From an uncultured Cytophagales bacterium (GTDB lineage: Bacteria > Bacteroidota > Bacteroidia > Cytophagales > JAAEPT01), in NCBI GenBank assembly GCA_963815495.1, contig CAWFGW010000007.1:129531-193530 (forward strand): a stretch of DNA of 64,000 bases. The letters run 5' to 3'. Below, in pieces: positions 6,216-15,244 of the stretch (position 1 is its first letter; every line of letters begins with the position of its first letter). A program made the translations under genes and the position numbers. The notes below the pieces were generated by a model. It was not told the origin of the DNA and did no database searches. It saw only the letters and a program-made list of their open reading frames with translations.

Positions 6216-7505
6216 TTACCAATTTAATCGATGAGATGCTTTTATCTTATCACTTAATTTAAGAGGTACTTCGTAGGCGCTACTATATTGCTGCCAGTTG
6301 TTTACCACGTCAACCACTTCCTCTAATATTCTTTCAGGATGCTTGATGGATTGTCTTTTGCCAACTTCTAAAAGTGTCGACTTGGTGAAATCAGCACGCT
6401 TTCCTGCTATACTCATCTGGTGAACATTCGTCCAGACGCCTTGTGGATTATAGCTCCAGGTTAGATCATAAGCCGGTGAAAGTTTCCACTGACCCGACTG
6501 ATCCATTAGGAAAGAAATATTCTTCGTATGGTCGTCTTGATTTCTAGCAACTACATTAAACAACATTCTTCGATATAGTGCTTCTATTTCATCATATCCT
6601 AGATTCAAAGCGCGCATTTCTTCAAATGCATCTTCATAGTCATAAACTCCTGGTTTATTATAATCAAAATGGCTGATCGCACACAAGGTTTGAACATGGA
6701 TTTTTCCACCCCCCACTTTTCTATCAAAACGTTGCGTCATAAAGTGTGCTCTTCCATTTTCTTCAAACAACGTACATGGCATCATGACTATTCCACAATC
6801 CAACGCCATTTTATGATAGGCCATTTCCGAACGACCATACCCTTTAGGGTCGCCTAAATTACTTTCGCTCACGCCATCAAACTTCAGTAAATAGTATTGA
6901 TATCCACTATCTAATTGAATTTGTCCTGATTTCACCTGCTTTGTCTCTGGGTTGTAACCAATAATCGCTTTTGCTCGCTGCCCCCCTGCGGATGCACCTA
7001 CCTGTATGAGTTGTGCCATGGTGTGCTCTTCCTGTTTTGACAAGTCAAAGTCAACACGTTCTTTTTCTTGAAGTACTTTATTGGTAAGCGCTACTAAGCG
7101 ACTCACCTCTATTTCTTCTTGTGGAGCTGCTATGGAATTGGTCGGTTCAAATTCTAGTGCTCCCATAGCCCTGTTACCCATGTAACTTAATTTTTCTAGG
7201 GGTGTTAGGCTTTCGGAACTTCTATTTTGCGAACGGAGCCAAGCTCTAAGCACCGTATTACCAAAGGCATCAGGCAAGGCATCGGCTAGCAATCCTGGTA
7301 ATCCTTCATAGGTATTGATTGCTAGTTCCGGAAATGAAAAGATACGCTGCCCTCGCTGTAAATCTTCCAGTGGCATAGTCAGTGGTGCAGTATCCAAACC
7401 TCGTTGCACAAATTTTTCTGTATATTCAAACACGGCTACATTGCGTCTGCTATCCCAAGCCACGGCTCCCATTAGTTCACCCCAAAGTTTTACCTGTACT
7501 ACCAT
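6216..7505 (-). CDS. hipA: HipA-family serine/threonine kinase toxin
   Basis: N-terminal HipA coupling region (VKLWGELMGAVAWD...) and a C-terminal kinase core (RNQDDHTKNISFLMD...SPAYDL). Confidence 0.85.
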   Translation of the reverse strand: MVVQVKLWGELMGAVAWDSRRNVAVFEYTEKFVQRGLDTAPLTMPLEDLQRGQRIFSFPELAINTYEGLPGLLADALPDAFGNTVLRAWLRSQNRSSESLTPLEKLSYMGNRAMGALEFEPTNSIAAPQEEIEVSRLVALTNKVLQEKERVDFDLSKQEEHTMAQLIQVGASAGGQRAKAIIGYNPETKQVKSGQIQLDSGYQYYLLKFDGVSESNLGDPKGYGRSEMAYHKMALDCGIVMMPCTLFEENGRAHFMTQRFDRKVGGGKIHVQTLCAISHFDYNKPGVYDYEDAFEEMRALNLGYDEIEALYRRMLFNVVARNQDDHTKNISFLMDQSGQWKLSPAYDLTWSYNPQGVWTNVHQMSIAGKRADFTKSTLLEVGKRQSIKHPERILEEVVDVVNNWQQYSSAYEVPLKLSDKIKASHRLNW

Positions 7506-7807
7506 TATTTATTGTTACGCACGCGCTGTTTCGGTTTTTCTTCTTTTAACAAATCTAAGGGACTAATTTGCACTGCGGGTTGTAGTAACTCAGCTAATTG
7601 GTCTATTTGACCCAAGGCACGTAGCACCTGAATAAACGTACTTAAGTTAGCACTTTCCCCATACTCAAGTTTCTGTAAGGTGTAGGCACTTATGCTTGCC
7701 TTTTCTGCCAATTGTTTTTGTGTGTAATTGGCTTGCATGCGATACGCTTTGATGCGCTCCCCCAATTCTTGTAATATCGCTTTATCTGTTTTCCTTTTAA
7801 AACTCAT
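7505..7807 (-). CDS. hipB: XRE-family HTH antitoxin (HipB-like)
   Basis: HTH YTQKQLAEKASISAYTLQKLEYG. Its stop overlaps the hipA ATG by 1 nt. I prefer ATG 7807 over the upstream TTG of the track ORF. Confidence 0.8.
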   Translation of the reverse strand: MSFKRKTDKAILQELGERIKAYRMQANYTQKQLAEKASISAYTLQKLEYGESANLSTFIQVLRALGQIDQLAELLQPAVQISPLDLLKEEKPKQRVRNNK

Positions 7808-7954
7808 AACACCAACTAAACTAGGTTTTAAATCAATAAAAAGCAAATAAAACCAATAATTATTGGTTTTAAATAAACACATACTAACAAGCATGATTGG
7901 TATTAACAGGAGAAATTTTTCTAAAAAGATCCTTAATCGCTCACTTAACTTTAA

Positions 7955-8579
7955 TTAAAATTCAAAATAACTATTGTCTATACTTTTTGCTATCCCTTCT
8001 AATCCAGGATAAATGGTTTTATGATCTACTCCCAACCATTGTAATTCCTTTTTAATTTCAAGTTTTTTATCAGGATTAATTTCTATACTTTCTAAAAAAA
8101 AATCACTTGATGATTTTTTTAAATCTAGTAGCCCGTTTACTTGATTTCCAAAAATTGTAAAGCGAGATTGCTGGCTTCTCATTCGTTCATCAAGTGGAGT
8201 GGGCATAATTGCTAAAGGATAAAATGCCTGTGACCCTGAAATACTTTTAAAATTCATTTCAATATATATTCTACTTATTTCATTTAATTTCCATTTCCCT
8301 AGAACATCTTTAATATCTCCTTTTTCGTAATCACGTAAAGGCCCAAGTATGATGTTTACTTTTTTTAATTCATCATTTATATTCAGGAAGGTTTTTTGGT
8401 TTAATAAATGAGGATTCAACACCAAAAATTTTACAGCTTCACAGTTAGTTTTTTTTCTCTCAACAGCAAAATAAAGTGCTACGAGTGCGTTAGTTGTCCA
8501 ATCCAACTCTTGTCTTCATGCCATAATGAGCCATCATATGATAGAAATTCCAACTATATTCAGTTACTGAACCTATCAT
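7955..8579 (-). pseudogene. FRG-domain gene, 5'-truncated and frameshifted
   Basis: The FRG signature AHYG-x-x-TR-x-LDWT is split between two frames: MAHYGMKTRVG in one and LDWTTNALVALYFA in the ORF frame, with a stop between them near 8505-8518. The ~100 aa normally upstream of this motif are missing. Confidence 0.6.
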
Positions 8580-8722
8580 CTCACACTCTCCTCCACTATC
8601 TTAATCTCCTCCTCCGTTAAGCCATACAAGGCATACACCAACTGGTCTATCTCAGCTTCTAAGGCACTGGTATCTGCTGCTGGGTCTGCTTTTTTGATAT
8701 TTATACTTATATTAAAACTCAT
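8576..8722 (-). pseudogene. relic of the C-terminal tail of an N6-adenine methyltransferase / type IIG R-M (Eco57I/PglX-like) gene
   Basis: 48-codon frame ...KKADPAADTSALEAEIDQLVYALYGLTEEEIKIVEESVR*. The LVYxLYGLTEEEIxIVE ending is the stereotyped tail of that family. Nothing upstream of it survives, because the helicase stop codon is directly adjacent. Confidence 0.45.
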
Positions 8723-10903
8723 TTAAATAACACATTCAAATATTCCAATAATCCTTAAAGTTTTAACTTCATCATCTTTCAACTTTAAAGGCTTATAATC
8801 GGAATTGGTTGATTGAGGTAATAGTGTAATTGTATCATGTTGCCAACCATCCTCAGACACCGTCTTTTTACTATGGTATTCCTTAACAGTGTAACATGAA
8901 CCAAAATCAGAATCTTGTATATCCGTATGTTCTGCTAGTACTATTAGTCCATTTCTCGATCCGCCAGAATATTTTTTGAATAAACAAATAGAACCATCTG
9001 GAATTACTTTATTCATTGATTCACCCACTACTTTACACGCAAAAAAATCTCTAGAAGCTTGATAGCGTTGGGGTAGAGAAATCCATTCATAGTCTTCAAC
9101 ATTTTGTATATCACTGAAACTTCCAGCAGCTGCTTTTAAATCATATAAAGGAATAGAATTTTCAAAAGGGACTATATCATTAGGGTTTAAAGGTGTAATT
9201 ATATCTTTAAAGGATGATTTAACGGGAATGAATCGGGATAAATAATCTCTTAAATTTTTATCACAGACATACACATAAGTTCCCTTTATACCTCTTAACA
9301 AAATCGTTTTGTAGATGTTGATTATATAAGATTTTAATTCTTTAGGATCTTTTATTGATTGCTTACCGTTTTTATCAAAATAATTTTCAGAGATGATTTC
9401 TATTTCATTTGTTTGTTTATTGTAAGTTATTTCATTTCCAAAAATTATCCCTGCATAATTTAAATCATAACCTTGAGTTGTATGTATACATCCGACTTCG
9501 TTAATCGAATTTTCTGAGTTAATCCAATCGGTTGCAGTTCCGTTCCATTTTAATTGAACATTATCTATCTCAATGTCAAAAGCTTGAGAATCTTTATTAG
9601 AAATCCAACTCCAAGAATAACCAGCTATTAATCGAGATAATCCATTTTCATTATTCCTAGATTTGATTTGATCCACAAACTCTTCGATTGAATCAAAAAG
9701 TAAAAACTCATATTTTGGAGCATTGAATGGAGCAATGTCATTCGTTAATGTCCCATTCAACATTTTAGTAACAAAGTCTACATACGCATTCCCACCTTTC
9801 ACTCTAAATTGAGAGTTCAATTTTTCAACTGATGTTGACAAACTTAGTTTTAGTCTATCAAAACTTTGTTTTTCTACATCTGAAGGCTTTATGGACTGGG
9901 AGTCATCATAGAATAAAATAGTCTTTTTGGATTGCATTACAACCCAGTCTAATTCATTAGATGTATTCTTTTCAGTCCCAAGTTTTTCACAAACTTTGTC
10001 AAAAGCACCATAGTATGCGCCAAGATTTATTCTGCGCCTAAGTCTATGAGATTCATCAACTAGAATAATATCGAAGTCTTCTTTAATTACCTCAGCGGGC
10101 CCAATAACCATTCTAGCACTTAAACCTTTAATATTCTTAAAGACTTTTTTAATGGTACTTCTAAACGAGGCCATCGGGATAACCAACGCCATTTTAGGGT
10201 TAGGAAACCTAATTTTAAGTTGTTCTATTAGATAAATGAATTCTTTCTCGTCTTCACCGAATTCTTTAAAGTTGAAATCATCATTATCAGAATTAAGTAT
10301 CTTAAAAAGGAATATAGCTAATATGGTTTTCCCTGTCCCTGCTCCACCTTCAATAAGGATATTTTCTTTTTTATCATTTAGAAGACTTTTTAAAATAATG
10401 AGTAGGCCTTGTCTTTGATCATAAGTTAATGTCTTATATGGAGAATATTTAAACAGATCCGAATTATCAATATGTTGAATCGAATGTTTAGTAATTCCTT
10501 CTGATCTCAGTGAGTTCCAAATTGTATTAAAAATATCCCAGTAAACTTCTTTTTTTTGATAGTAATTGTGATTGGCTAAACCCAAATTCCCATTTAAAAG
10601 TTTATACTGCCCATCTCCGGATATATACTTAATCAAGTTAGATTCTATATCTAAAGTGGCAGATTTATTAAATTTATCACTTGTAATTAAATGTACGGAT
10701 GTAAGCTTTTTTTTTGTGTCATTTTTTAAATGAGCTGCCATGCGAGCATATGCATCAGTTGTTTCTCCAACATAGGCTTCTTTAACTCCCTCATCACTTA
10801 AAATATAAACTAAAGGCCAAAAATCTTTAGCATGATGATTTGTACTAAAATCATCAAAAAGGTTAGAATTAAAATTGTATTGCTTTACTGCAATTTGGCT
10901 CAT
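8723..10903 (-). CDS. three-domain protein: GIY-YIG nuclease + DUF2075-type P-loop (SF1-like) helicase + C-terminal S24 (LexA/UmuD-like) peptidase
   Basis: GIY-YIG at aa 28-100 (LVYIL...AYVGETTDAYARMAAHL). Walker A GGAGTGKT at aa 186-193. Walker B ILVDESHRL at aa 280-288. HTTQGYDLNYAGIIFG motif. S24 domain at aa ~583-726 with AAAG (591-594), GESM (Ser629) and YTVKEY (Lys674). Confidence 0.8.
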   Translation of the reverse strand: MSQIAVKQYNFNSNLFDDFSTNHHAKDFWPLVYILSDEGVKEAYVGETTDAYARMAAHLKNDTKKKLTSVHLITSDKFNKSATLDIESNLIKYISGDGQYKLLNGNLGLANHNYYQKKEVYWDIFNTIWNSLRSEGITKHSIQHIDNSDLFKYSPYKTLTYDQRQGLLIILKSLLNDKKENILIEGGAGTGKTILAIFLFKILNSDNDDFNFKEFGEDEKEFIYLIEQLKIRFPNPKMALVIPMASFRSTIKKVFKNIKGLSARMVIGPAEVIKEDFDIILVDESHRLRRRINLGAYYGAFDKVCEKLGTEKNTSNELDWVVMQSKKTILFYDDSQSIKPSDVEKQSFDRLKLSLSTSVEKLNSQFRVKGGNAYVDFVTKMLNGTLTNDIAPFNAPKYEFLLFDSIEEFVDQIKSRNNENGLSRLIAGYSWSWISNKDSQAFDIEIDNVQLKWNGTATDWINSENSINEVGCIHTTQGYDLNYAGIIFGNEITYNKQTNEIEIISENYFDKNGKQSIKDPKELKSYIINIYKTILLRGIKGTYVYVCDKNLRDYLSRFIPVKSSFKDIITPLNPNDIVPFENSIPLYDLKAAAGSFSDIQNVEDYEWISLPQRYQASRDFFACKVVGESMNKVIPDGSICLFKKYSGGSRNGLIVLAEHTDIQDSDFGSCYTVKEYHSKKTVSEDGWQHDTITLLPQSTNSDYKPLKLKDDEVKTLRIIGIFECVI

Positions 10904-11226
10904 AATTCATTATATTTTTTTGCAGTACCTTTAGACTTTTGAACTGGATATTTTTCAGCATTTTTTTGAACTTTAGCCATTATAATTTCTTTCACATCAA
11001 GATTATACTTATCAGCAAGCAAAAAAGCATATGCAAAAACATCTGCTAGCTCTTCCTTTATTTTATTCAGATTAGCCTCTTCAGGATTTTTCCATAAAAA
11101 TAATTCAAGTAACTCACCTGCTTCTACATTAAGCGCTAACGCTAAATCTTTTGCATTATGAAATTGTTCCCAATCTCTTTCATTCCTGAACTCTATGAGT
11201 TTTTTAATAATTTCTTCCATAGTCAT
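10900..11226 (-). CDS. MazG-like nucleotide pyrophosphohydrolase (dCTPase/DCTPP1-like all-alpha NTP-PPase)
   Basis: RDWEQFH...EAGELLE...EELADVFAY motifs (EExxE/D metal sites). ATGA stop/start overlap with the downstream helicase gene. ATG 11226 chosen over the upstream TTG. Confidence 0.75.
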   Translation of the reverse strand: MTMEEIIKKLIEFRNERDWEQFHNAKDLALALNVEAGELLELFLWKNPEEANLNKIKEELADVFAYAFLLADKYNLDVKEIIMAKVQKNAEKYPVQKSKGTAKKYNEL

Positions 11227-11370
11227 AACAAATGTTATAAGCCTCAATTTAATCTAATGAAAACAAAACATGTATAAAAACAGGTCATAATTTATAAAAA
11301 CTTTATTATTAAAAAACATAACTTGTCAATCATGAACATAATTTATGTTTGACTTTTATAAAAACAAACC

Positions 11371-11802
11371 ATGGACATTCCTGAAAAAATAAACTACAAG
11401 TACAACACTAAAAAAGCACTTACTTATGTGCTCGTTGGGTTAGGACTTACTTTGGGGTCTATTATTGTCCCGGTAGTAAGAATTCTTGTGTTCATTGTTG
11501 GTCTTATGGTAACCTTTACTGGTCTAGGGGCTTTAGTCCGCAGAAAACCGCAACTTTTATTGGATAAAGAAGGGTTATATATTGGCTTTAAGATTAAAAG
11601 GAAAATACCCTGGCGATTTATAGATGCAACTAGTGTGAAAAAAGAAAAAGTAGATGATCGGCTTGTGTGGTATTTAAGAGTACGTACTAAGTCGGTAAAA
11701 GGCGGGGTTATCGGGTATAATAATTTTGAAGCAAATCTCGACTTATTAAAAATTGATTCTTATGTACTAAAGGAACAACTGAACCATTTTAGAGGAATTT
11801 AA
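11371..11802 (+). CDS. small membrane protein with two TM helices and a PH-like soluble domain
   Basis: 143-aa ORF. Hydrophobic stretch at aa 17-55. No catalytic motif. Confidence 0.45.
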   Translation: MDIPEKINYKYNTKKALTYVLVGLGLTLGSIIVPVVRILVFIVGLMVTFTGLGALVRRKPQLLLDKEGLYIGFKIKRKIPWRFIDATSVKKEKVDDRLVWYLRVRTKSVKGGVIGYNNFEANLDLLKIDSYVLKEQLNHFRGI

Positions 11803-11809
11803 TACCAGC

Positions 11810-12436
11810 CTATTTTTCAATCTCCTTTAACACCGACACATACAACTTACTAATCGCTGCTTTGGAAGCCCCATTTTTATTGATATAAACCAACAGATGC
11901 TGATCATGGTATTCAATACATAGTTTCTCAAAGTCTTTTGCTAGCCTCCTAACTGTAGCTCCCACATGTTGTTCAAACGTATCTTTTGAAGGCGTTTTTA
12001 AAAAGAGTGTAGTAGATAATCCACCAAGTTGCACAAACCCTGCAGACTCCAAGTCGTGTTTGCTGATTCGTCCCAATGAATCCAGTGATTCGATCACAAA
12101 GGGTGGCCAGTTACTATCAGGTAAACCAAAAATAAGTACCATACGTGTGTACTTGATATCCGTATTTCCAGTGCTTGCATACACCCAATCCAATGCATAA
12201 TCTCGGGCCTCACCTCTGCTTTTTACATAGCAGTTTTCCATATCTACGACAGGTCCTTTGGCTTGTAAAAACGTCTTTGGGAAAAATGACTGCAGCTGGT
12301 CGTTAAAGTCATCTTTAAAACTTTTAAATCCTAGATTAGCAAAGAGCTGATCCAGTTTTTCGGTTCTTCGTCTTTTAATACCGATACCTATCACCGCAAA
12401 CAATCCGAGGAGGACAAGAATTAAAGCTTTTACCAT
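11810..12436 (-). CDS. membrane-anchored hypothetical protein
   Basis: 208-aa ORF with a single N-terminal TM helix followed by KRRR. No recognisable domain. Confidence 0.45.
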   Translation of the reverse strand: MVKALILVLLGLFAVIGIGIKRRRTEKLDQLFANLGFKSFKDDFNDQLQSFFPKTFLQAKGPVVDMENCYVKSRGEARDYALDWVYASTGNTDIKYTRMVLIFGLPDSNWPPFVIESLDSLGRISKHDLESAGFVQLGGLSTTLFLKTPSKDTFEQHVGATVRRLAKDFEKLCIEYHDQHLLVYINKNGASKAAISKLYVSVLKEIEK

Positions 12437-12585: not shown

Positions 12586-12927
12586 CTAATTCGACCAAAC
12601 CGCATATCCTTTTCTTCTTAACTCCAGAGTTAACTGCTTTTCCATCTTTAGTGCCTCTTCCCGGGTTTTGTAGGGTGGTAAATGGCCGTATAAACTAGAC
12701 CGTAAATAAGCACCATACTTTTCGACTATGGAGGAGGAAATTTTATAACCCTTTTTACTTAAGGCACTCGTCCTGTGTTGTAAAAACCGCTCTTGAGGTG
12801 TTTTGCTTGTCATACCTACATACACACATTCAAGCGCACCATTGTATTGGGGGTTTGCAGTCCTGAACTTGGTGTTTTCAGAATATACTTTGCGCAAAAG
12901 CTCTATTACGTAAACAGTATAAGGCAT
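12586..12927 (-). CDS. stand-alone GIY-YIG-like small protein
   Basis: YTVYVIEL ... CVYVGMTSKTPQERFLQH pattern (GIY ... YIG ... R ... H) in a 113-aa protein. Confidence 0.5.
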   Translation of the reverse strand: MPYTVYVIELLRKVYSENTKFRTANPQYNGALECVYVGMTSKTPQERFLQHRTSALSKKGYKISSSIVEKYGAYLRSSLYGHLPPYKTREEALKMEKQLTLELRRKGYAVWSN

Positions 12928-12996: not shown

Positions 12997-13998
12997 TTAG
13001 GTTCTGGGCTCAATTTTAATAGTCCATACAACTTCTTGTAGTCTATTCGCTATTTTTTTCATCGTATTTAAAACAGCTTTTTCATCGGGTAAAGAACTAT
13101 ACACTAAATCCTTAAATGCACCACTATACGTAGGCTTTAGTTCTACCCAAACAGCATCTATATTTTTAAAAAACAATGCTTTGCTAGGGTGATGCTCTAA
13201 CCACGAATTATTGTTTCTAAAACTTACAACATCATCTTGCGCTACTTTTAATAACATCTCTTCAAAAGCTGGGGAAAGAAAAAACAACACAAACTCATCT
13301 TGCTGTAGCAGTTGGTGTAAATCGTAGGTATGACGAATTTTCTTCTTTAAGTCATCCATTGGATTTTCTCCGTAAGAAAACCGAACTAAGCTCATTATTT
13401 TTTCGCAAAGGGTTCGAATGGGTTCTAATACACGCACTTCAAATGGCATCATACCATTGGCTTCTGCGATAGCTGTCTGCCCAGTATTTAGCATCATATC
13501 GCCCACAAAGGAGTTCAGTTTTTTATTGGTGTATGGCTCAAAATAACCTAACCAACTTGATTCTAATATGATAACATCTCTTACTTGTCCAAAACTACCT
13601 TCAAATGATTTATTATACGTATGCGCTGTTTTACGATTCATCCCCATTTTATGAGTAATTTCTTCAATAAATACTTCGGGTAAAACCTTTTCGACTACTT
13701 TACTAATCGTTCTAATCTTGGTTTTTAGATTATTATCGTTTTCACCCTCTCTGCGCAATACCACCAAGTCTATATCTTCTGAAAAACGATCTATCATTTT
13801 ATAACATTTCGATAGTGCTGTACCTCCCTTAAAAACAGTCTCCTCTCCTATCCTATGGCTAAAAATGATATGAAGCGCATAGGTGACCCAATAATCTTTC
13901 TCAACATAAATTGCAGGCATACCCATGTAATCAGCTGTAAACTGAATCGCTTGTCGAAATAAAGTTTTGTCTTCGTGTAGCTTCATGCGATATTCCAT
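12997..13998 (-). CDS. abiEii: AbiEii/AbiGii-family nucleotidyltransferase toxin
   Basis: YVEKDYWVTYAL ... FKGGTALSKCY ... RFSEDIDLVV motifs. Overlaps the upstream antitoxin gene by 16 nt. Confidence 0.85.
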   Translation of the reverse strand: MEYRMKLHEDKTLFRQAIQFTADYMGMPAIYVEKDYWVTYALHIIFSHRIGEETVFKGGTALSKCYKMIDRFSEDIDLVVLRREGENDNNLKTKIRTISKVVEKVLPEVFIEEITHKMGMNRKTAHTYNKSFEGSFGQVRDVIILESSWLGYFEPYTNKKLNSFVGDMMLNTGQTAIAEANGMMPFEVRVLEPIRTLCEKIMSLVRFSYGENPMDDLKKKIRHTYDLHQLLQQDEFVLFFLSPAFEEMLLKVAQDDVVSFRNNNSWLEHHPSKALFFKNIDAVWVELKPTYSGAFKDLVYSSLPDEKAVLNTMKKIANRLQEVVWTIKIEPRT

Positions 13999-14708
13999 TT
14001 TTCTGTTGCAAACAATACTTTGTCAGCACCAGGTAATTTATACTTAGTAATAGGGTTTAATGATTTTAAAAGAGATATAGTCAAATCTCTTTGTTGTAAT
14101 TGTTCCAACAAAGCGCCTAACAAAGCTCTAGTCGCGGGAGGATATTTTAAAGCCAACCGAACTAACTTAGTGATCTCTTTATCTGAAAAACTCTTCAATA
14201 TAGCTAATAGCCGCTTTAACGATGATTCTATTGTTGCATCAGGTATTTTTTTAATATATCGTATTGCATCTAATAGTTGAAGTAGAGGAATATTCTCTTT
14301 GGTAATGGTGTTTTTTTGTTTTATAAATGAAATGGTATAGCGTTCCCTTTTAAAGTTTGGACGTATCACATTTTTACCTATTTGAATAGTATTGCTTACC
14401 TGTGTAGTTAAGCCTAATTGACTGTAAACACTGTAACCTGTGAGGTAACCTATAATTTTCCCATTGTCTTCCAACAAGTCTTTTACTATTTGCGCTTGAT
14501 TAGGCTGTAGCTTTCCAAAAGGCGTGTCTTCAGGTTTGTAATACTTGCCTTTGGATAATTTGGCAATTTTTCCTGATTGCACCATTCTATTTAGTGCTTT
14601 AATAACCGCTTCCTTTTTACCCACCTCTGTTACAAAGTCAGCATAGGTAAACACATACCCCATAGGGAGTCTATCTATGCTATTCGATATATAATCAGTT
14701 ACTTTCAT
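13983..14708 (-). CDS. abiEi: AbiEi-family (DUF6088-like) antitoxin/transcriptional regulator
   Basis: N-terminal winged-helix-like region (FTYADF...AVIKALNRMVQSGKIAKLSKGKYY), placed directly upstream of abiEii and overlapping it. Confidence 0.75.
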   Translation of the reverse strand: MKVTDYISNSIDRLPMGYVFTYADFVTEVGKKEAVIKALNRMVQSGKIAKLSKGKYYKPEDTPFGKLQPNQAQIVKDLLEDNGKIIGYLTGYSVYSQLGLTTQVSNTIQIGKNVIRPNFKRERYTISFIKQKNTITKENIPLLQLLDAIRYIKKIPDATIESSLKRLLAILKSFSDKEITKLVRLALKYPPATRALLGALLEQLQQRDLTISLLKSLNPITKYKLPGADKVLFATEKWNIA

Positions 14709-14827: not shown

Positions 14828-15170
14828 CATGTTAATTGCCCTACTGCAATTGTAAACTCACTTCCATTTTTCACTCCTCTCTAAAAAACATCACGTTTAT
14901 TGAACAATAATCACAATTTAATCCTGTCCTATAAATGGAAGGCTACAAATACATTGAAGTAAATCTTCACATTTTCCAGTGTAAAAATTGTCTAAATTTT
15001 ACAAAATCGTCTCCGTCTCAATAAGATTCCTGATCAACTCCGCGCTGCTACGTTGTTTGGAATGACGGTGTGGGTATTGGTTTTACGTGGATACCTGGTG
15101 CATATTGAAAAAATTTTACCCTTAAAAACAAAATAGGCTTACACTTTTGGTGTACGCCTTTGCTTTTGTG

Positions 15171-15244
15171 AGCCCCCAGTCGGATTCGAACCAACGACCT
15201 ACTGATTACAAGTCAGTTGCTCTGGCCAACTGAGCTATGGAGGC
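15171..15244 (-). tRNA. tRNA-Thr (anticodon UGU)
   Basis: Cloverleaf folded by hand: acceptor GCCTCCA/TGGGGGC, D stem GCTC/GAGC, anticodon stem ACTGA/TCAGT with loop CTTGTAA, T stem GTTGG/CCGAC with loop TTCGAAT. 74 nt, CCA not encoded. Confidence 0.9.

Follow-up and report, generated by a model that had tools for sequence, protein, structure and literature searches.

The S24 domains of LexA, UmuD and lambda cI (MEROPS S24) have been visualised with RecA by cryo-electron microscopy: a LexA pocket formed by F111, L113 and V153 receives F203 of the RecA L2 loop, and the LexA acidic patch D150-E152 faces a basic patch of RecA (PMC9926225). In Type I restriction, the HsdR subunit of EcoKI is degraded by ClpXP after DNA damage (PMC4231737, PMC11109961, PMC12707154). 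Nhi and Nhi-like proteins, encoded in defence islands, are single polypeptides in which an N-terminal nuclease precedes a DUF2075 superfamily 1B (SF1B) helicase (Bari et al., bioRxiv 10.1101/776245; Millman et al., bioRxiv 10.1101/2022.05.11.491447). Here we analysed a gene that touches all three, in a stretch of 64,000 nucleotides (hereafter the window) on contig CAWFGW010000007.1 of an uncultured Cytophagales bacterium. It encodes a 726-amino-acid (aa) fusion of a GIY-YIG nuclease, a DUF2075 SF1B helicase and an S24 autoprotease domain (8723..10903, minus strand), as read from the list of open reading frames (ORFs), the translation and the Pfam domains. We find that the S24 domain is of a subtype recurrently attached to restriction and defence enzymes, and we propose that it may act as a RecA-responsive proteolytic switch. 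All positions given below are coordinates within the window, and residues of the fusion protein are numbered aa 1-726.

An earlier note, made from the letters of this DNA, had placed an autoprotease module of LexA/UmuD type at the end of a nuclease-helicase, and the fold it named was recovered by Pfam, by the AlphaFold model and by Foldseek alike. The domain occupies aa 583-726 (144 aa; 8726..9157, minus strand). Pfam Peptidase_S24 (PF00717) matched aa 585-720 with 35.3 bits against a curated cutoff of 23.3 (E=1e-8), over positions 1-113 of the 116 in the profile. The model of the domain was all-beta (pLDDT, the predicted local distance difference test, 72.9); when it was searched with Foldseek, the 22 best matches in the PDB were all LexA, lambda cI or UmuD (E down to 6.5e-6, probability 1.00), and S26 signal peptidases ranked behind them.

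We then placed the catalytic residues by hhalign profile alignment to Escherichia coli LexA: A593-G594 fell on A84-G85, S629 on S119 and K674 on K156. The register proposed in the earlier note, with AAAG at aa 591-594 (nt 9122-9133), Ser629 in G-E-S-M and Lys674 in T-V-K, thus reads as quoted and coincides with the dyad and cleavage bond of LexA. The predicted scissile bond Ala593-Gly594 (9122..9127, minus strand) lies in the strand L-K-A-A-A/G-S-F, where the slash marks the bond; the family majority is L-K-V-A-A/G, and in most members the V-A-A/G is identical to that of LexA. The predicted nucleophile Ser629 stands in G-E-S-M-N (9017..9019, minus strand) and the predicted general base Lys674 in Y-T-V-K-E-Y (8882..8884, minus strand). 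The bond is separated from Ser629 by 36 residues, against 35 in LexA. In an alignment of 121 sequences, the protein and its 120 best homologues, A593 was conserved in 100%, G594 in 99% and both S629 and K674 in 100% (121/121 each). The same alignment to LexA supplied counterparts of its RecA-filament contacts, namely a predicted hydrophobic pocket (F621, C623 and Y671) and a predicted acidic patch (D664 and D666; all within 8891..9043, minus strand), and these positions were 91-100% conserved within the 121 sequences. Taken together, profiles and models identify aa 583-726 as a genuine S24 domain of LexA/UmuD type whose predicted catalytic residues are intact.

Similarity to canonical LexA is low at the level of single sequences. 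A phmmer search of the PDB with the C-terminal 169 aa returned nothing relevant, and a 25-sequence family profile reached Thermotoga LexA with only E=0.03 and 17 bits. This points to a divergent S24 clade and not to a recent copy of LexA.

The remainder of the protein is the nuclease-helicase body claimed by the earlier note, made up of GIY-YIG and DUF2075/Schlafen-group-3 (SLFN-g3) domains. The GIY-YIG domain (about aa 28-100; 10604..10822, minus strand) scored 22.0 bits in Pfam, marginally below the cutoff of 22.6. PF01541 is recorded for most homologues, and Y33, Y44, G46, E47, R54, H58, E87 and N89 were invariant in an alignment of 45 full-length proteins. The helicase core (aa 180-548; 9260..10366, minus strand) matched PF09848 with E=7.7e-63 (8e-63 when rounded), and its Walker A GGAGTGKT (nt 10325-10348) and Walker B VDESH (nt 10046-10060; DESH), both on the minus strand, were likewise invariant among the 45 proteins. 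The full-length AlphaFold model (pLDDT 75.5) matched the SF1B helicases Upf1, nsp13, SLFN11, RecD2, Dna2 and Dda; a family profile over the full length recovered no solved structure by sequence. Helicase and S24 domain are joined by a poorly conserved, flexible linker of about 27 residues that resembles the LexA hinge (aa 556-582; 9158..9238, minus strand); in the full-length model its pLDDT falls below 50 at aa 564-568. The architecture is stable, as all of the 120 best homologues are 726-732 aa long and carry both PF09848 and PF00717. NCBIfam holds no model that matches the fusion protein or the product of its partner gene, described below.

We examined how widely this kind of S24 domain occurs by an exhaustive HMMER search against 1.84 billion representatives, with an S24-domain profile built from this family. 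There were 1896 hits, 1076 of them at E<1e-10, and those at E<1e-30 formed 157 clusters at 50% identity. From the best 150 of the 1896 hits we took an architecture census, for which the 89 representatives with 250 aa or more were scanned with Pfam; many of the short hits are probably fragments of genes. The S24 domain was C-terminal in nearly all of the best 150, in proteins of 97-1490 aa. Among the 89 scanned representatives, the partner domains were DUF2075 (28), ResIII helicase (12), Type_ISP_C (8), DUF3427 (7), GIY-YIG (5), the HsdR C-terminal domain (4), Eco57I (4), N6_Mtase (3) and helix-turn-helix (HTH; 3), together with one case each of XhoI, RE_endonuc, MmeI, HsdS, PLD, an MrfA zinc-binding/MZB domain (YprA-type), McrBC and Schlafen AlbA_2. 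A second query with a full-length, 1294-aa member resembling Type ISP/IIG enzymes gave at least 110 clusters of proteins of about 1300 aa with a C-terminal S24 domain (PF00717). Some of these large fusions lie on megabase contigs, and they are therefore real genes and not assembly chimeras.

Across all architectures in the best 150 representatives, the predicted active site was kept: Ser629 in 145/145 and Lys674 in 145/146. At the cleavage site the +1 position was Gly in 127/138, the -1 position Ala in 124 and Cys in 9, the -2 position Ala in 129 and the -3 position Ala, Val or Ile in 131. The counterparts of the RecA contacts were similarly retained (F621 in 140/144, Y/F671 in 137/145, D664 in 138/146 and D/E666 in 141/147), and the fused S24 modules scored 124-235 bits with the family profile. 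On this evidence from profiles and alignments, the S24 domain studied here belongs to a distinct clade that has been fused repeatedly to the C-termini of restriction and defence enzymes. The earlier note had argued that the domain regulates an enzyme and not transcription, and this view gains from the absence of an HTH in the fusion protein by Pfam, the N-terminal 580 aa being GIY-YIG plus DUF2075, and from the census, in which just 3 of the 89 representatives have an HTH and most have helicase, nuclease or restriction domains.

Database names obscure this group. S24-tailed enzymes are often entered as 'LexA repressor' (NCBI, Polaribacter huanghezhanensis, P0028) or as 'SOS-response transcriptional repressor LexA' (JGI; homologues P0282-P0396). 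These entries are really nuclease-helicases of 730 aa or restriction-modification (R-M) enzymes of 1300 aa, a systematic mis-annotation that affects hundreds of entries. For the protein of the window we could rule out an identity as LexA repressor, as it has no N-terminal winged-helix DNA-binding domain; the name is an annotation carry-over.

The fusion gene has a constant partner. Directly upstream, a gene of about 108 codons (10900..11226, minus strand) encodes a DCTPP1-like, that is MazG-like and all-alpha, deoxynucleoside triphosphate (dNTP) pyrophosphatase, identified by PF12643, phmmer and gene context. As read from the sequence, the stop of this gene and the start of the fusion gene share the overlap ATGA. 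Pfam MazG-like PF12643 matched with 72.4 bits against a cutoff of 27 (E=3.7e-20), and phmmer aligned residues 2-108 with structures of the mammalian dCTP pyrophosphatase 1 (DCTPP1/RS21-C6; 6sqw/2a3q) at E=1.3e-20. The motifs E-A-G-E and E-E-L-A-D of the partner align with E-V-G-E and E-E-L-S-D of DCTPP1 and are conserved in 79 orthologues; we take these E-x-x-E and E-x-x-D motifs to be metal-binding ligands.

Relatives were sought in one genome per species, which gave 111, and 80 loci from other genomes were examined. The pyrophosphatase gene lay immediately upstream of the fusion gene in 79 of the 80, at 41-79% identity. Clustering of all flanking ORFs across these loci yielded no third conserved gene, the pyrophosphatase being the only one found; a neighbour 'cluster' seen at 17 loci was discarded as an artefact of antisense ORFs inside the pyrophosphatase gene. 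Similarly, none of the HipA, HTH, AbiE, PDC-S15 and small GIY-YIG genes of the window recurred beside the cassette in the 80 loci. Because the pyrophosphatase is the sole conserved neighbour, we conclude that the fusion gene and its translationally coupled partner are a self-contained, horizontally mobile two-gene cassette. The hosts are chiefly Bacteroidota but also include Oceanospirillaceae, Bermanella, a metagenome-assembled genome (MAG) of Rickettsiales, Balneolaceae and several lineages of the candidate phyla radiation (CPR), a scatter that indicates horizontal transfer. A phage origin was rejected: 50,697 phage records and IMG/VR contained no full-length relative, only distant ones lacking S24. 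With PADLOC 2.0.0 the fusion protein gave weak partial matches and the partner none, and the cassette is not catalogued there. Pyrophosphatases of MazG type have been predicted as defence domains, a prediction not validated (DefensePredictor). Two observations concern the hosts of relatives L066, L072, L076, L078 and L079. One copy, 66% identical, sits on a contig labelled as a 'Bordetella parapertussis' MAG, probably through mis-binning. Copies in CPR/Patescibacteria MAGs show 55-57% identity, and two of these matches end at residue 706, so that their S24 ends may be truncated.

Relatives without S24 tails were also found. On Bacillus megaplasmids and gut phage contigs there are GIY-YIG-DUF2075 proteins of 540-560 aa with 33-38% identity over aa 4-570, none of which reaches into the S24 region. 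At both Bacillus plasmid loci that were opened (NC_020394 and NZ_CP036030, our L081 and L082), a small 'nucleotide pyrophosphohydrolase' gene stands directly upstream. The presence of the same partner beside enzymes without S24 indicates that the pyrophosphatase and nuclease-helicase core is older and spans phyla, the S24 tail having been gained by one clade. On both plasmids the S24-less cassette lies just downstream of an HNH endonuclease gene, and on one of them genes for a further (d)NTP pyrophosphohydrolase and for a zeta toxin are close by; HNH and cassette surroundings may form a larger conserved neighbourhood in Bacillota.

These observations led us to a model of regulation by DNA damage, which we put at about an even chance: through RecA filaments, the S24 domain would act as an irreversible proteolytic switch, most likely turning the enzyme off. 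In the undamaged cell the intact cassette would counter phages with a nuclease-helicase in the manner of Nhi, while its pyrophosphatase would act on a dNTP pool, possibly on modified dCTP. Once filaments of RecA on single-stranded DNA (ssDNA) form, the S24 domain would dock in the filament groove by way of its hydrophobic pocket and acidic patch; we infer the filament as trigger from the conservation, in the family and in all architectures, of the counterparts of the RecA-binding residues of LexA, which lends indirect support to the suggestion of the earlier note that activated RecA probably stimulates cleavage. The Ser629/Lys674 dyad would then cut Ala593-Gly594 and part the enzyme (aa 1-593) from S24 (aa 594-726). 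The freed enzyme would end in K-[A or V]-A-A-COOH, like the ClpXP signal of the N-terminal fragment of LexA, and would be degraded. A DNA-targeting enzyme would in this way be removed while the chromosome has gaps, stalled forks and unmodified repair tracts, which would amount to a built-in restriction alleviation. For the clade as a whole we more tentatively suggest, at somewhat below even chances, a widespread plug-in regulator by which DNA-targeting immunity enzymes would read the RecA-filament (SOS) signal directly and then destroy or unleash themselves by autoproteolysis. Its carriers would be Type I (HsdR/HsdS), Type ISP/IIG/IIL, Type II and Type IV proteins as well as DUF2075, DUF3427 and YprA-like helicases.

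Several points weigh against a switch towards destruction. For every family member it is inferred that cleavage occurs, that it depends on RecA and what becomes of the fragments. The strand [V or A]-A-A/G is also the canonical LexA cleavage strand, and its conservation may reflect the need for cleavage, which makes it weak evidence for a degron; moreover, in Bacteroidota the rules by which ClpXP recognises its substrates are yet to be established. As the S24-less Bacillus enzymes demonstrate, aa 1-560 make a complete enzyme by themselves, and the cleaved product could equally be the active form. Fusions that include a methyltransferase or HsdS would lose protective methylation as well upon destruction. 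The AlphaFold models are of moderate confidence (pLDDT 73-76) and come without predicted aligned errors, so that contact between S24 and the enzyme body is not judgeable from them. Finally, the census reflects the best 150 of 1896 hits to a profile made from this very family.

The same docking and cut could have the opposite effect, and this is the main rival reading. The S24 domain would then hold the nuclease-helicase inactive, through dimerisation as in LexA, UmuD and cI or through occlusion, until RecA filaments assembled on damaged DNA, or on intermediates of phage replication or recombination, set off its release by self-cleavage; the freed enzyme would degrade phage DNA or abort the infection. 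UmuD is a precedent for activation by S24 cleavage (PMC9926225), Nhi, a related DUF2075 defence enzyme, acts on intermediates of phage replication (bioRxiv 10.1101/776245), the aa 1-593 product corresponds to the complete S24-less enzymes of Bacillus plasmids and gut phage contigs, and the conserved catalytic and RecA-contact residues suit activation too. We nonetheless regard it as less likely than an off-switch, since the same module sits on an XhoI-type restriction endonuclease, HsdR, HsdS, Type ISP/IIG proteins and McrBC, which should meet incoming DNA before any RecA filament exists, and since Flavobacteriia of surface waters would pay a high price for freeing a nuclease-helicase whenever a cell is damaged by UV. 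Destruction following RecA-triggered cleavage is modestly favoured over activation for three reasons. Type II endonuclease, HsdR, HsdS and R-M fusion partners are constitutive enzymes for which being inactive until SOS would make little sense, and which call for silencing after damage; the damage-induced proteolytic removal of EcoKI offers a precedent; and the VAA or AAA end exposed by cleavage resembles the LexA signal for degradation by ClpXP. For LexA-like proteins, a passage of PMC5742171 that cites Neher 2003 describes a C-terminal ClpXP degron exposed beside the cleavage site.

A further possibility is that the domain cleaves itself in answer to something other than RecA, for instance a phage protein, the binding of DNA or nucleotide by the helicase, or slow spontaneous turnover, and so serves as a timer or a phage-sensing fuse. 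S24 domains do self-cleave at alkaline pH in the absence of RecA, and IrvR is reported to cleave without RecA. Members of the family are present, too, in CPR bacteria and in further lineages whose repair systems are reduced. We judge such a cue unlikely given that the pocket (F621, position 623 and Y/F671) and the acidic patch (D664 and D/E666) are conserved in all architectures, a conservation that could also be structural. Least probable to us is an S24 domain with no regulatory cleavage in cis, serving for dimerisation, for recruitment to RecA filaments or as a protease in trans. In its favour are the facts that S24 C-terminal domains dimerise LexA, UmuD and cI and that UmuD cleaves intermolecularly (PMC9926225), and that the human DUF2075-type helicase SLFN11, which is recruited to RPA-coated ssDNA, is among the structural matches. 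A pure binding module would need neither an intact dyad nor a scissile bond, yet the Ala-Gly pair stands at a LexA-like distance from the serine and is as conserved as the dyad in every architecture.

The cassette lies in an island of about 9 kb bounded by a MORN-repeat gene and a tRNA-Thr gene. On one side, a gene for a HipA-like kinase toxin (429 aa; HipA_C and Couple_hipA by Pfam) starts within the end of the gene for a 129-aa HTH_3 protein (6216-7894, minus strand), and the two are a HipBA-type toxin-antitoxin pair beside the cassette. A PDC-S15/FRG-domain candidate defence gene follows (7955-8506, minus strand); it lacks about 100 N-terminal residues, has in-frame stops upstream and is probably a pseudogene. 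A 48-aa ORF (8576-8722, minus strand; …ALEAEIDQLVYALYGLTEEEIKIVEESVR) begins straight after the stop of the fusion gene. It has no Pfam match, and tblastn gave 61% identity (E=2e-8) to a Planktothrix 'DNA methyltransferase'; judged by this match, it is what survives of an Eco57I-type/N6 DNA methylase, namely part of its C-terminal tail. The same remnant trails the cassette in three loci only (L015, L021 and L074). It thus seems that, in an ancestor within Flavobacterium, the cassette was inserted into an R-M gene or recombined with one.

On the other side, the stretch 11371-12436, between the cassette and an AbiE pair, contains two ORFs of unknown function, one of 143 aa with a weak DUF6249/STM3941 match and one of 208 aa without any match. 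A stand-alone ORF of 113 aa (12586-12927, minus strand) has a weak GIY-YIG match of 21.7 bits, below the cutoff. The AbiEi/AbiEii pair itself (12997-14708, minus strand), a type IV toxin-antitoxin and abortive infection system, was found by PADLOC with E=1e-60 and 1e-104 and adjoins tRNA-Thr(TGT) at the island edge (15170-15244, minus strand). No integrase was seen in the island. The G+C content of the cassette (8723-11247) is 30.7% against 34.8% for the whole window, consistent with horizontal acquisition. Systems directed against phages or other mobile genetic elements usually show themselves as a mobile unit that stays constant while its defence-rich surroundings vary, which suggests such a function here.

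In the openly searchable full-text literature, neither a fusion of S24 with DUF2075 or with restriction enzymes nor a MazG-DUF2075 pairing was found to be described. Both were likewise not found in the Nhi preprint, in surveys and reviews of R-M, YprA, BREX, McrBC and NTP-dependent conflict systems, or in DefensePredictor. What we propose is an S24 switch on an Nhi-like nuclease-helicase, a combination of known kinds of element in a two-gene cassette that is not catalogued. Of greatest interest is the wider pattern, an S24 clade devoted to enzymes of restriction and defence. How cells spare their own chromosome from restriction and defence nucleases after DNA damage is understood mainly for the Type I enzymes of E. 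coli, by ClpXP acting in trans. A self-cleaving, RecA-responsive module inside the enzymes would, if real, be a general and portable answer to self-attack after damage, and with destruction as the outcome, the enzyme would carry its own restriction alleviation. Should cleavage prove activating, the module would offer a new way of sensing infection through RecA filaments. In either direction, enzymes would join repressors and UmuD as subjects of S24 biology. A further outcome is the definition of an uncharacterised cassette of a DCTPP1-like pyrophosphatase and a GIY-YIG-DUF2075 nuclease-helicase that spans Bacteroidota and Bacillota.

Comparison with described systems shows where this locus departs from each. 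Human SLFN11 has a homologous helicase domain (PF09848; structural match 7zel) and acts at stressed replication forks (PMC6765204), but it carries an N-terminal Schlafen RNase domain, has neither S24 nor GIY-YIG and senses RPA-ssDNA instead of RecA. The caspase-SRA-HNH protein AmaNI, a caspase-restriction enzyme fusion, is the nearest published idea of a protease that regulates restriction: a peptidase is fused to a restriction endonuclease, and its authors suggested regulation by post-translational cleavage or abortive infection (PMC6765204). Its peptidase differs in being of the caspase class and N-terminal, with no link to RecA, and AmaNI is a single example and not a recurrent module.

Nhi is closer in its body plan. 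Like the fusion protein, it places a nuclease before a DUF2075 helicase, and the structural relatives Upf1, Dda, Dna2 and SLFN11 are the same as those reported for it (bioRxiv 10.1101/776245). However, Nhi has a PD-(D/E)xK nuclease of HsdR-like type, no S24, a different and poorly conserved C-terminal domain, and works alone, whereas the family described here combines a GIY-YIG nuclease and an S24 tail with an obligate DCTPP1-like partner gene. In PADLOC, whose library comes without curated cutoffs, the fusion protein matched Nhi (E=1e-9) and AbiO (E=7.5e-8), both weakly and over aa 149-419 only, while its N-terminus matched the candidate family PDC-S14. The partner present at 79 of 80 loci argues for a two-gene unit in contrast to the single-gene Nhi.

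Type I restriction alleviation shares the proposed logic, in that a translocating restriction helicase-nuclease (EcoKI HsdR) is removed by proteolysis (ClpXP) once DNA damage leaves host DNA unprotected, and the S24 module is itself found fused to HsdR- and HsdS-type proteins. The E. coli signal is a stalled translocating complex, with the protease recruited in trans, whereas here the trigger would be built in. With LexA, UmuD and lambda cI the domain shares the fold, the Ser-Lys dyad, the Ala-Gly bond, about the same spacing and the predicted RecA-contact pocket and acidic patch. It differs from LexA by about 8 extra residues inserted ahead of the TVK strand in the hhalign alignment and, from all three, by its cargo, which is an N-terminal nuclease-helicase of 580 aa instead of a DNA-binding domain or a polymerase subunit.

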